NCBI GenBank assembly: GCA_036403075.1
Contig: DASWRS010000244.1
Coordinates: 4,200 to 68,199 of the forward strand
Source of the DNA: Kofleriaceae bacterium
GTDB taxonomy: Bacteria; Myxococcota_A; Polyangia; Haliangiales; Haliangiaceae
Direction of reading: 5' to 3'
DNA length: 64,000 nt
Shown: positions 19,032-19,782 of the stretch, piece by piece
Position numbering within the stretch: position 1 is the stretch's first letter
Layout: each line of letters opens with the position of its first letter
Made by a program: the position numbers and the translations under genes
The notes under the pieces: generated by a model
Databases searched by the model: none
Seen by the model: only the letters and a program-made list of their open reading frames with translations
Told to the model about the DNA's origin: nothing

Positions 19032-19083
19032 GATCCAGTCAGGCTGATCCGCAGCGGGGCCCGCCGCTGGCGCAGGAATGCGG
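19032..19083 (-). pseudogene. 52-bp relic of the VAO-type oxidase gene
   Basis: Matches 14812-14863 (inside CDS 13719-15218) with 4 mismatches. It is fused directly to the 3' flank of peptide copy 2. Confidence 0.8.
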
Positions 19084-19095
19084 GGTGATCTCGGA

Positions 19096-19257
19096 TCAGC
19101 AGATCGGGTCGATGCCCGGCGGGGCTGCGGCCCCGGGGCCTTGGCCGCCCTTCACAGCCTTGAGCGCGCTGCCGCTCAGTGCGCGGAGCCCCGACGCGCG
19201 GCGCTTCTGGATCGACAGATCCTGATTCTTGCGGCAGTCGTACTTCGTGTTCTTCAT
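19096..19257 (-). CDS. 53-aa double-glycine-leader peptide, copy 2 (orphan)
   Basis: GGAGG, then 5 nt, then ATG. Sequence is MKNTKYDCRKNQDLSIQKRRASGLRALSGSALKAVKGG|QGPGAAAPPGIDPIC. Confidence 0.7.
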   Translation of the reverse strand: MKNTKYDCRKNQDLSIQKRRASGLRALSGSALKAVKGGQGPGAAAPPGIDPIC

Positions 19258-19355
19258 GGAAACCTCCTGTTTATCCCCCGATGGTGGGAGATGGTTCCGT
19301 GACGTTGTCAGGTGTCGCTGCATAAATGCAATGACAATCCGAATGAGCGGCCGGC

Positions 19356-19371
19356 GGCAATATGTTTGCCA
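19356..19371 (-). promoter_or_regulatory. Sigma-54 (-24/-12) promoter element, copy 2
   Basis: Minus strand reads TGGCAAACATATTGCC, identical to 16180-16195. Confidence 0.7.
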
Positions 19372-19408
19372 CATGTACCGGTACGTTCCCCGTGTTCTGC
19401 CGAGAACC

Positions 19409-19444
19409 GCCGGCATCGCCGGCATCGCCGGCATCGCTGGCATC
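19409..19444. repeat. Tandem repeat (GCCGGCATC)x4
   Basis: Three perfect 9-bp units and one imperfect unit. Absent from copy 1, where the CTGGCAGTGCCAG palindrome sits instead. Confidence 0.9.
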
Positions 19445-19485
19445 AGGGCGATCGCAGCGACTCGACATCACTCCGGATCTCCGAG

Positions 19486-19782
19486 TCACGTTCTCGCGTC
19501 GCAGTGGACCATGGTAACAACGCCGTACCATCGGACAGCGATGTCGACATTGCGCCTGACGGATTTCGCAGCACCGACTCGATCGATCATCACGCCTGCA
19601 CGCTCGATCGCATCGATCACTCGGGGCAACTCGGCTTCCGAGGCGAACACCGAGATGTCGACATCATTGGTATCTCGCGGAATCGCCCAGGCCGTGAGTG
19701 CGAGCGCTCCACCGAACGCATAGTCGAGTTGATCCTCCTCGAGGCGCGCGGCGATATGCTGCGATAGCTCGAAGGCGTTCAT
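19486..19782 (-). pseudogene. Nucleotidyltransferase-fold protein (AbiEii/MNT-like), apparently 3'-truncated
   Basis: DYAFGGALALTAWAIPRDTNDVDISVF is the GG...D-x-D NTase motif. The last ~25 codons read into duplication copy 2 (boundary ~19562) and have a counterpart in copy 1. Confidence 0.55.

Follow-up and report, generated by a model that had tools for sequence, protein, structure and literature searches.

A second, enzyme-less copy of a DPIC peptide gene in a Kofleriaceae bacterium: a candidate orphan precursor of a rare peptide/hydroxylase/flavoprotein cassette

The DNA analysed here (the window, 64,000 nt from a Kofleriaceae bacterium) carries a small peptide gene twice, in the same orientation and 3.2 kb apart: once at the head of a cassette with two enzyme genes (copy 1) and once without an adjoining enzyme gene (copy 2). 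Is copy 2 a live second precursor or the debris of a rearrangement, and where did it come from? The window was compared with itself using BLASTN. Positions 19079-19560 aligned with 15903-16365 at 81.2% identity (484 columns, 4 gaps, E 2e-133), and positions 19031-19083 aligned with 14811-14863 at 92.5% (53 nt, 4 mismatches, 49/53, E 1e-16); the latter match falls within the FAD_binding_4 ORF 13719-15290 on the minus strand. The BLASTN result agrees with the initial annotation, which had described a duplicated peptide gene with its upstream region and a relic of the oxidase gene, except that the ends are shifted by 1-3 nt. The segment and its neighbours are listed below; L001, a syntenic relative, and L002 carry close alleles of the peptide gene.

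19031-19560, minus strand: full extent of copy 2, from promoter region and 5' UTR through the peptide ORF and 17 nt of 3' flank to the oxidase relic (self-BLASTN and alignment)
19096-19257, minus strand: copy-2 peptide ORF, 53 codons plus stop, ATG start, MKNTKYDCRKNQDLSIQKRRASGLRALSGSALKAVKGG followed by QGPGAAAPPGIDPIC
19031-19083, minus strand: relic of the FAD-oxidase gene, 53 bp, codons ~143-160, PAFLRQRRAPLRISLTGS, from self-BLASTN
19408-19444, no strand assigned: tandem repeat of 9 bp x 4.1, inserted in copy 2 and absent from copy 1, L001 and L002
18796-19047, plus strand: lipoprotein-like gene cut by the insertion, 83 aa with its end inside the relic (intact in L001, 126 aa)
19486-19782, minus strand: truncated AbiEii-like nucleotidyltransferase ORF (weak match to Pfam PF08843, residues 15-79; comparison with L001)

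The anatomy described earlier, i.e. an ORF with Shine-Dalgarno sequence, UTR, promoter-like box and ~190 bp of further upstream DNA, joined to an internal, in-frame fragment of the oxidase gene, was found as claimed. The copy-2 peptide is annotated as a 53-aa protein in a public collection (P0001) and reached 89 bits with the family HMM. In the oxidase frame, three of the four relic mismatches are synonymous and one is nonsynonymous, which suggests that the donor oxidase was functional during divergence. Indels in the flanks had been noted before and are present, including the tandem repeat, a 36-bp expansion ~40 nt upstream of the copy-2 -24 box. Both neighbouring genes are truncated. Homology of the AbiEii-like ORF stops at the start of the duplicated segment and the ORF continues into copy-2 upstream DNA; at the other end, the junction between the relic and the lipoprotein-like gene shows the microhomology ATCG. 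Lying among truncated genes, the copy-2 segment could be merely young debris.

Copy 1 is the first gene of an intact cassette, with the following members:

15903-16365, minus strand: copy-1 counterpart with promoter region, UTR and ORF 16081-15920 (GTG start)
15229-15894, minus strand: prolyl-4-hydroxylase (P4H)-like 2OG-Fe(II) oxygenase, 221 aa (Pfam PF13640, 7.9e-8)
13719-15290, minus strand: VAO/PCMH-type flavoprotein (Pfam PF01565, 5.6e-26), with the source stretch of the relic at 14811-14863

In the oxygenase, the motifs HWD, TLH.G and KWAINVW (HxD...H iron ligands) are kept in 7 orthologues and the start GTG-AGG-CAG is conserved. The motif DPDRDRCG of the flavoprotein contains Cys371, D369 and G372, all invariant in an alignment of 22 oxidases. 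The peptide as first gene of a conserved peptide/hydroxylase/oxidase cassette, as proposed initially, was seen across all loci found to hold the cassette (the window, L092/L093, L003, L004/5, L006/7, L008, L009/10, L011, L094 and L097/98). These represent at least 9 unrelated genomic neighbourhoods, always with the order peptide, 2OG oxygenase, FAD oxidase; L092 and L093 are arranged as copy 1 in the window. At each of the cassette loci inspected, a single peptide was present within ~10 kb.

The family is rare: a search of 1.84 billion representative proteins gave no more than 12 clusters at E ≤ 1e-10. A scan of genome and metagenome contigs using an alignment of four peptides gave no relatives and, at that sensitivity, none in 185,579 GTDB species representatives. 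The broader oxidase family comprises ~600 loci at 35-48% identity. Its 80 best GTDB loci (35-48%), which include Minicystis, Archangium, Corallococcus, Chloroflexota, cyanobacteria and Acidobacteria, lack both the hydroxylase and a DPIC peptide and were rejected as carriers of the cassette. Judged from sequences, the cassette is limited to a narrow oxidase sub-clade. No description of it was found in the literature; a myxobacterial match with a C-terminal cysteine belonged to unrelated MNIO systems and was discarded. What the searches delineate is a rare, uncharacterised cassette predicted to encode a peptide with a double-glycine leader and a DPIC end, a P4H-like 2OG oxygenase and a VAO/PCMH-type flavoprotein.

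The peptide family consists of 34 members. In an alignment of 29 sequences, the invariant positions are K2, K5, L32, G37 and DPIC, and core length ranges from 10 to 19 residues. The core is variable, Pro-rich, often with PPG or APG, and usually without Tyr. The leader L-R-A-L(-12)-N-G-S-A-L(-7)-K-x-V(-4)-K-G-G has glycines at -2/-1 and hydrophobic residues at -4, -7 and -12, i.e. it is of the double-glycine type. The combination expected of a RiPP precursor, a conserved leader, a variable core and an invariant putative modification site, is present, and copy 2 keeps every invariant position; conserved co-oriented linkage upstream of the enzyme genes was found for copy 1 and 9 further contexts. 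From these features we infer that the DPIC peptides are RiPP precursors. Neither window peptide matched NCBIfam, and no precomputed Pfam domain was listed for the matches of the family. No C39/PCAT exporter or protease was found in the window ORFs scanned, nor a C39/PCAT next to any cassette; a MacB/HlyD/OEP set at 50.5-55.2 kb was considered and is not a PCAT.

Upstream of the copy-2 ORF the following elements were recognised:

19263-19268, minus strand: Shine-Dalgarno sequence AGGAGG, identical in copy 1 (16087-16092)
19275-19288, minus strand: short hairpin directly 5' of the Shine-Dalgarno sequence, CCC-ACCATC-GGG in copy 2 and CAC-ACCATC-GTG in copy 1 (16099-16112)
19300-19310, minus strand: small 5' UTR hairpin TGAC-AAC-GTCA, read by eye from the sequences without statistics
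19328-19337, minus strand: motif TTGTCATTGC, its TTGC invariant in 10/10 aligned family upstream regions
19357-19371, minus strand: sigma-54-type -24/-12-like box TGGCAAACATATTGC, identical to copy 1 (16181-16195)
19374-19385, minus strand: palindrome CGTACCGGTACA, adjoining the box upstream and conserved in copy 1, L001 and L002

Between the copies, the hairpin next to the Shine-Dalgarno sequence shows a compensatory change from A-U to C-G. RNAalifold on 10 family UTRs gave 4 pairs, with double-sided changes in 3. Equivalents of the second hairpin, (C)TGGCA-N3-TGCC(AG), occur in L003 and L008. No Rfam family matched the conserved 5' UTR (13000-21000, E ≤ 1), and a scan for sigma-70 promoters and intrinsic terminators around copy 2 gave nothing relevant. 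The pattern TGGCA-N6-TTGC occurs exactly twice in the 64 kb, upstream of the two ORFs (0.2 expected), and the box agrees with a sigma-54 promoter in its -24 TGGCA, -12 TTGC and GG-N10-GC spacing. It is conserved in L001 and, with one mismatch in TTGC, in L002; a correctly spaced box was not recognisable in L003-L011, L094, L095 and L097. The sigma-54 box of the initial annotation therefore stands for the sub-clade of the window, L001 and L002, but as a general promoter of the family it was rejected. A sigma-54 activator (Sigma54_activat) was absent from the window ORFs scanned; in L095, such a gene lies 1.7 kb from the orphan peptide gene.

With this expression unit retained (~190 bp upstream of the -24/-12-like box, a structured 5' UTR, the Shine-Dalgarno sequence and an ATG ORF of 53 codons), copy 2 would provide a second substrate peptide, expressed from a promoter of the kind that copy 1 has. 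The hydroxylase and the flavoprotein encoded 3.2 kb away would act in trans on its product, which a peptidase or exporter from another locus would then cut after Gly-Gly. We infer both the transcription of copy 2 and the processing of its peptide in trans; the oxygenase is presumed to act on the copy-2 peptide in trans, and the chemistry is presumed to begin with hydroxylation of Pro at or close to DPIC and to continue with flavin-dependent oxidation. That copy 2 is a live precursor modified in this way is, in our judgement, the likeliest reading, at about even odds.

The strongest competing explanation takes copy 2 as non-functional rearrangement debris, with a divergence from copy 1 that was inherited from the donor and not accrued under selection in place; we regard this as possible, short of probable. 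On this account the intact look follows from a recent event and from the fact that a GC-rich ORF of 162 nt rarely gains stop codons: 77% of neutral simulations were stop-free. As claimed before, both ORFs keep 53 codons plus stop and their frame without an indel between them; leaving aside the start codon, 7 of the 38 leader residues and 4 of the 15 core residues are exchanged, and 4 codons have synonymous changes only. The flanks of copy 2 carry one copy-2-specific indel in ~300 nt, so chance alone predicts an indel-free ORF. Codon-aware comparison of the two copies gave a dN/dS of 0.55, not significantly below 1 (p = 0.19), and the nucleotide differences are flat over codon positions 1/2/3 (8/7/8). 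The ORF is conserved no better than the non-coding upstream region (85.8% versus 84.4%). The truncated genes on both sides, the distance from the enzyme genes and the repeat expansion in the upstream region fit debris as well. Against it, copy 2 has retained 14/14 invariant or near-invariant residues, an outcome seen in 7.4% of substitution-matched neutral simulations, although the neutral-simulation tests are marginal throughout (p = 0.07-0.2). It starts with ATG, the stronger start codon, its promoter-like box and Shine-Dalgarno sequence are intact, and the hairpin change is compensated. The copy-2 lineage has evolved no faster than that of copy 1 (unique changes copy 2 versus copy 1: 8 v 11 in the ORF, 11 v 15 in the upstream region); changes unique to copy 2 comprise 4 that are synonymous and 3 that are not (p = 0.07). 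Speaking against a live copy, two of its residues, S8C and A23G, are unseen in all other family members.

Selection maintains orphan paralogues elsewhere in the family, which speaks for a live copy 2. The MAG GCA_965187385.1 has a full cassette (L009, P0142) and, on another contig, an orphan paralogue (L095, P0148) with no enzyme genes within 8-10 kb. The dN/dS of this orphan's leader is 0.16 (Sd 14, Nd 10, p = 1e-4), indicating purifying selection. The codon-aware dN/dS run suggested with the initial annotation thus detected selection on the L095 orphan and left copy 2 itself at the non-significant value given above. In L001 and L002 the peptide gene is intact, and of the hydroxylase gene behind it only the first ~13 codons are present. 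Since promoter-equipped orphans recur (in the window, in L001/L002, and as the selected one in the MAG), the peptide appears to be a functional product, not a regulatory by-product. Two precursors which share a leader, differ in their cores and include at least one remote from the enzymes occur in one genome in both the window and the MAG. The earlier picture of a multi-precursor RiPP locus is borne out insofar as orphan precursors recur in the family, but it is not typical, with one peptide per cassette locus.

With regard to origin, the initial annotation had derived copy 2 from a copy of the whole operon. The donor must indeed have had peptide and oxidase together, but it was not the present operon. 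Among the four close alleles (copy 1, copy 2, L001 and L002), no pair is further apart than copy 1 and copy 2 (84.8% identity, versus 90.1% for copy 2/L002 and 87.6% for copy 1/L001). Quartet-informative sites group copy 1 with L001 and copy 2 with L002 in 9 cases, the two copies together in 2, and copy 1 with L002 in 1; eight of the 9 are clustered upstream, so the grouping of copy 2 with L002 could reflect a conversion patch. The dS between the copies is 0.24 against a window/L001 background of 0.08 (p = 0.018; non-coding upstream region p = 0.006), i.e. two to three times the synonymous background at strain level. A recent duplicate of the resident operon is ruled out by this divergence together with the quartet analysis. 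L001 has no insert, its lipoprotein-like gene being intact. Given the most divergent pair, the above-background divergence and the insert-free L001, copy 2 is best read as a remnant of an already diverged second cassette. The core of copy 2 had been called variant; it is in fact the ancestral type, sharing AAAPPG with L001 and L002, and the core of copy 1 is derived. The relic and the peptide gene differ in divergence (7.5% versus 15%), not significantly so (p = 0.15), and the dating of two separate events from these values was dropped.

What survives as copy 2 would then be the front end of the second cassette copy, a reading to which, jointly with its function as a second substrate, we give about an even chance. 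Illegitimate joining at microhomologies would have fixed the fragment within a decaying stretch flanked by the remnant of the AbiEii-like toxin gene and the lipoprotein-like gene. One breakpoint fuses the DNA 17 nt past the peptide stop codon to oxidase codon ~143; at the other, the oxidase is cut 53 bp on and joined to the lipoprotein-like gene. An origin in situ is unlikely. It would have started with a tandem duplication of ~4.2 kb (lipoprotein-gene codon 81 to oxidase codon 160) and two deletions in the first unit, followed by homologous replacement of the ice-binding-to-oxidase segment by a foreign allele; the junction between relic and lipoprotein-like gene would be the duplication joint, and the allele replacement would have produced the high divergence between the copies. 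The co-orientation and spacing of the copies suit this course, and the relic adjoins exactly the gene that precedes the cassette region and is nearest to the window's own oxidase (92.5%, others ≤ 87%). The dS of the ice-binding/peptide segment against L001 (0.17, background 0.08) is consistent with allele replacement. However, four events are required, copy 2 differs by 10-13% from the L001/L002 alleles where background divergence would be expected, and no remnant of the ice-binding gene is present upstream of copy 2, where homology begins 68 bp past the stop of that gene.

It is highly improbable that the small ORF is a cis-acting regulatory uORF (leader peptide or attenuator) of the hydroxylase-oxidase operon and not a substrate, which would leave the orphan functionless: in the cassettes it always directly precedes the two enzyme genes and follows a structured 5' UTR that is conserved, and no RRE or leader-binding domain was detected in either enzyme, but the peptide is strongly conserved with a canonical double-glycine pattern (L-12, L-7, V-4, G-2, G-1) and an invariant C-terminal DPIC beside a variable Pro-rich core, enzyme-less orphan copies are under purifying selection, and between the ORF and the hydroxylase gene lie anywhere from 13 to 181 nt, in which neither a conserved terminator nor a conserved anti-terminator was seen on reading by eye.

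The orphan copy alone is a modest event, a partial gene copy from illegitimate recombination. Following it exposes a compact three-gene cassette unrepresented in the databases searched, which pairs two enzyme types without a documented joint role in peptide maturation. Tentatively, the DPIC peptides could form a new, very rare RiPP class of Kofleriaceae-like Myxococcota, in which the P4H homologue and the VAO/PCMH-type flavoprotein jointly rework Asp-Pro-Ile-Cys and orphans serve as extra substrates in trans. At DPIC, a hydroxyproline could form, be oxidised and then be captured by the Cys thiol. If this class is real, cassette fragments that shed their enzymes are recycled into a small precursor library. 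Orphan precursors offer natural substrate variants for tests of enzyme tolerance. The locus shows a route to extra precursors in RiPP-like loci by decay of a second cassette, not by clean gene duplication.

Each component resembles a known system in part. The best PDB matches of the oxygenase are P4Hs (7zsc, 3itq, 5hv0, 2jig), and it shares with collagen-type and bacterial P4Hs the HxD...H ligands, next to a Pro-rich core with PPG/APG and an invariant Pro in DPIC. The similarity to P4Hs reaches only E 7e-9 to 1e-3 within the catalytic domain, and Asp beta-hydroxylation may be the reaction instead of Pro hydroxylation. The flavoprotein matches PCMH and vanillyl-alcohol oxidase (1dii, 1vao, 9fge) over its full length (E 1e-65 to 1e-30; 9fge 1.7e-65, PCMH 7e-56). 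Aligned to 1dii, it conserves the phenolate-binding triad Y95, Y473 and R474; unlike PCMH, it has Asp in place of Tyr384, the residue of covalent FAD attachment, and no cytochrome gene was found in any cassette inspected. As peptide cores are usually without Tyr, its substrate is not an obvious phenol. To our knowledge the VAO/PCMH-type fold does not occur in RiPP tailoring, and no such case was found in the literature. LanD/EpiD are HFCD-fold FMN/FAD proteins acting on the C-terminal Cys of RiPPs. The combination of a flavoenzyme and a precursor with an invariant final Cys recalls them, a functional likeness that is speculation; the FAD_binding_4 fold of the cassette flavoprotein is unrelated.

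The double-glycine leaders of class II bacteriocins and quorum peptides are cut by C39-peptidase ABC exporters (PCATs). LRALNGSALKxVKGG fits their consensus in the positions of its hydrophobic residues (-12, -7, -4) and of Gly-Gly (-2/-1), whereas the DPIC peptides have Ala or Ser, not Glu, at -8 and a core of only 10-19 residues. In the prochlorosins, one ProcM (LanM) serves many ProcA precursors scattered over the genome, with Nif11/NHLP leaders. The system described here differs in its enzymes, a P4H-like 2OG oxygenase and a VAO/PCMH-type flavoprotein in place of LanM, in its leader of ~38 aa, which is unrelated to Nif11/NHLP, and in scale, with only two copies here, one at every other cassette locus, and trans-processing as a proposal. 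If trans-processing is real, the likeness lies in one enzyme set serving several precursors that share a double-glycine leader and differ in their cores, some of them encoded remotely.

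BLASTN of 18800-19900 against the window returned two non-self matches in all: 19079-19560 against 15903-16365 (81.2% identity, 484 columns, 4 gaps, E 2e-133) and 19031-19083 against 14811-14863 (92.5% over 53 nt, E 1e-16). The latter counterpart lies in the interior of a 523-aa FAD_binding_4 ORF (13719-15290, minus strand). This confirmed the claim of the initial annotation that the peptide-gene region is duplicated together with a piece of the oxidase gene (the relic). The following features define the site:

16081-15920, minus strand: copy-1 peptide ORF, GTG start, 53 codons, indel-free
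Directly after copy 1: 221-aa protein with Pfam domain 2OG-FeII_Oxy_3 (hydroxylase), then the FAD_binding_4 protein (oxidase)
19257-19096, minus strand: copy-2 peptide ORF, ATG start, 53 codons, indel-free
18796-19047, plus strand: lipoprotein-like gene, cut after codon ~81, its end now inside the relic
19782-19486, minus strand: truncated AbiEii-like nucleotidyltransferase ORF, 98 aa, profile positions 11-76 of 238 only

The anatomy described earlier for copy 2 was right: both ORFs keep 53 codons and the frame, indels are confined to the flanks, and the counts of 7 differing residues of 38 in the leader and 4 of 15 in the core are correct. Sixteen codons differ, 12 nonsynonymously (including the start codon) and 4 synonymously. 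The biggest flank indel is a tandem repeat (9 bp x 4.1; 19408-19444), present in copy 2 only. The motif TGGCA-N6-TTGC occurs twice in the 64 kb (0.2 expected), once upstream of each peptide ORF.

A 6-kb metagenome contig of a close relative (L001; flanking genes 94-96% identical to the window, dS 0.08) is syntenic here and has a single peptide gene, located behind an ice-binding-like gene as for copy 1. Window 19712-19037 is replaced in L001 by 204 unrelated bases, and these supply the rest of a lipoprotein-like gene (126 aa, opposite strand). Since L001 is syntenic without the insert and its lipoprotein-like gene is intact, copy 2 is a derived insertion-replacement of the window lineage. Orn/DAP decarboxylase and LysR genes are present in L001 and absent from the window. 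Pfam homology of the AbiEii-like ORF stops at residue 79, and the duplicated DNA starts ~5 codons earlier, at residue 74. This ORF is preceded by a 145-aa ORF without clear family (pair spanning 19486-20216, minus strand), and the two look like a degraded toxin-antitoxin pair. L001 has lost more of this pair in a separate deletion; the copy-2 stretch is decaying in both lineages. Short microhomology was found at both junctions, CCC/CCGC where the peptide 3' flank joins oxidase codon ~143 and ATCG where the relic joins the lipoprotein-like gene. The same window contains a non-homologous end-joining set (25350-30821):

25350-27305, minus strand: Ku
26885-29059, plus strand: PolX/PHP polymerase, beside Ku and LigD
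29064-30821, plus strand: LigD phosphoesterase/primase-polymerase

The contigs of close oxidase homologues (78-87% identity) were examined, and all showed the gene order small ORF, 2OG oxygenase, FAD oxidase (L003, L004/5, L006/7, L008, L009/10, L011, L092/93, L094, L097/98); the genes flanking the cassette differ and are unrelated between contigs. A profile search built from 10 cassette peptides gave a family of 34 members, one of them from a Kofleriaceae MAG. Scanned exhaustively with an HMM, 1.84 billion representative proteins gave only 12 clusters at E ≤ 1e-10. The DPIC peptide family is real yet very rare. All members share a basic N-terminus (MKNTK...), a double-glycine-type leader (L-12, L-7, V-4, G-2, G-1), a short core, which is Pro-rich in most, and an invariant C-terminal Asp-Pro-Ile-Cys. 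Neither window peptide matched an NCBIfam model, precomputed Pfam domains are lacking throughout the family, and no description of the DPIC peptide or the cassette was found in the literature. Among GTDB genomes, the wider oxidase family has ~600 loci (35-48% identity); both hydroxylase and DPIC peptide are absent around the best 80 of these, hence the cassette is a narrow specialisation.

Further peptides were observed during these searches. P0157 (153 aa, representative library) contains three exact tandem repeats of ...VPQVAGRFSIAASLLKAAAGGDPAALSTDPIC without stops between them, each a leader end plus DPIC core; it may be a precursor with several cores, or merely the translation of tandemly repeated DNA. 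A called 56-aa gene 8 kb downstream of the L006 cassette (17857-18027, plus strand; MKKPQVRSAGSHTSSVRIVSEGELQVVTGGDGVVNTKLPQLHRNPLDGVTGQRLPQ) has a double-glycine leader weakly like the DPIC leader (HMM E 0.014) and lacks the DPIC end. In the window, a 50-aa ORF (35207-35359, plus strand; MKKAKKTRLHRERDVLRVLQSYELGGVAGGSDTIIKPPPLTSDSKVACCV) adjoins the 3' end of a 1037-aa beta-propeller-like ORF (32071-35184). Its double-glycine leader is canonical (L-12, E-8, L-7, V-4, GG) and precedes a Pro-rich core with an ACCV end. Likeness to the DPIC family is weak (tblastn E 0.09; family HMM E 0.024), and the ORF may encode another, distinct peptide that is secreted or modified.

The strongest support for a function of copy 2 is comparative. 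In MAG GCA_965187385.1, a full cassette (L009, peptide P0142) is found on one contig and an orphan paralogue with a different core on another:

10001-10147 of L095 (contig CBCYZT010000072.1, MAG GCA_965187385.1): orphan DPIC gene P0148

No enzyme genes were found within 8-10 kb of this orphan, and the P0142/P0148 leader dN/dS is 0.16 (Sd 14, Nd 10; p = 1e-4). Two radical-SAM genes lie in the same 18-kb locus, as does a LanC-like gene accompanied by a lanthipeptide-leader ORF. In L001 (5620-6033) and another related metagenome contig, L002 (563-936), the peptide gene behind the ice-binding-like gene is intact, but just the ~13 first hydroxylase codons come after it (the start GTG-AGG-CAG is conserved among cassettes); at the window equivalent of ~15857, both switch to the 3' end of a convergent gene that has its relative at window 17771-18631. 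These contigs represent independent loss of the enzyme genes with a promoter-equipped peptide gene left, which is effectively an orphan. Considering L095, L001 and L002 together, enzyme-less, promoter-equipped precursors recur in this family, and in at least one case this state is under selection.

For the window itself, the codon-aware comparison proposed in the initial annotation gave an NG86 dN/dS of 0.55 (Sd 8, Nd 14; p = 0.19; 8/7/8 differences at codon positions 1/2/3), which is underpowered, so that selection on copy 2 is not provable. This value, and an ORF conservation (85.8%) no better than that of the upstream DNA (84.4%), would suit a young dead relic. Other observations favour function. 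The copy-2 lineage has 4 synonymous and 3 nonsynonymous changes of its own (p = 0.07), and copy 2 shows fewer unique changes than copy 1 in ORF and upstream region alike. It keeps 14/14 invariant or near-invariant residues, as do only 7.4% of equal-substitution neutral simulations, and has an ATG start, and its SD and -24/-12-like box are the same as in copy 1. The hairpin just 5' of the SD, which covaries across the family, differs in copy 2 by a compensatory exchange of A-U for C-G. A dead relic is conceivable but somewhat doubtful on these data; that copy 2 is a live second precursor served in trans has, judging from the sequences, about an even chance.

Regarding its origin, four close alleles were compared (copy 1, copy 2, L001, L002). 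Copy 1/copy 2 is the pair of lowest identity (84.8%; copy 2/L002 90.1%, copy 1/L001 87.6%, L001/L002 89.9%). Quartet-informative sites group copy 1 with L001 and copy 2 with L002 in nine cases (8/9 in one upstream patch), the two window copies together in two, and the third way in one. The dS of copy 1/copy 2 is 0.24 vs. a window-L001 background of 0.08 (HlyD-like and lipoprotein-like genes; p = 0.018), and non-coding upstream divergence (15.6%) also exceeds background (p = 0.006). Pair identity, quartet sites and dS rule out a recent duplicate of copy 1, and the proposed derivation from a copy of the present operon had to be replaced by a diverged donor. Nor is the copy-2 core the variant one: its AAAPPG, also present in L001 and L002, is the ancestral type, and the copy-1 core APLAPG is the derived one. 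The relic is nearest to the window's own oxidase (92.5% vs. ≤ 87% for other cassettes), and of its four mismatches three are silent in the oxidase frame (p = 0.06), which hints that the donor oxidase was still functional while diverging.

The simplest account is a second, already diverged cassette as donor (a paralogue from another place in the genome, or DNA of a related strain), of which only the front end and the 53-bp internal scrap would have been left. In-situ tandem duplication with two deletions accounts elegantly for the geometry but needs later allele replacement to account for the divergence and predicts copy 2/L001 closer than observed; we consider it unlikely. As it concerns how copy 2 arose and not its function, it fits a live or a dead copy 2. 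Third-position GC is 0.86-0.90 in the cassette, the ice-binding-like gene and a 286-aa gene (13719-18631) vs. 0.92-0.98 in most window genes, and dS of the ice-binding/peptide segment against L001 is twice the background (0.17 vs. 0.08). This segment may have a separate history, recombinant or horizontally acquired.

The sigma-54 box of the initial annotation held for the near relatives, being perfect in both copies and L001 and having one mismatch in L002, but a correctly spaced box was not recognisable in more distant cassettes. These share instead a TTGC(A/G)-N14-16-TGGCAG/TGACA arrangement and the pre-SD hairpin. The 5' UTR layout is conserved family-wide (window 16099-16161 and 19275-19337, minus strand; L003-L011, L094, L095, L097): an invariant TTGC(A/G), 14-16 nt on a small hairpin (TGGCA-N3-TGCCA or TGAC-N3-GTCA), and the pre-SD hairpin, which shows compensatory changes. 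It matched no family in Rfam. A sigma-54 activator gene was absent among the window ORFs scanned; one is located 1.7 kb upstream of the L095 orphan. That the small ORF is a regulatory ORF is highly improbable. No C39/PCAT exporter was found nearby, thus leader removal must rely on a gene elsewhere.

The event that made copy 2 is of a known kind. The closest solved structures of the hydroxylase are prolyl 4-hydroxylases, and its HxD...H ligands are kept. The oxidase (13719-15290, minus strand) is related over its full length to p-cresol methylhydroxylase (PCMH) and vanillyl-alcohol oxidase; it keeps the PCMH (1dii) phenolate-binding triad Y95, Y473 and R474, whereas Asp occupies the position of the covalent-FAD Tyr384. 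Its family motif DPDRDRCG holds an invariant Cys. Despite the conserved triad, Tyr is mostly missing from the peptide cores. A RiPP-like substrate is the best reading of the peptide; the RiPP interpretation given initially is plausible and now better grounded. As for the cassette, it seems to be a so far undescribed variant among peptide-modification systems.
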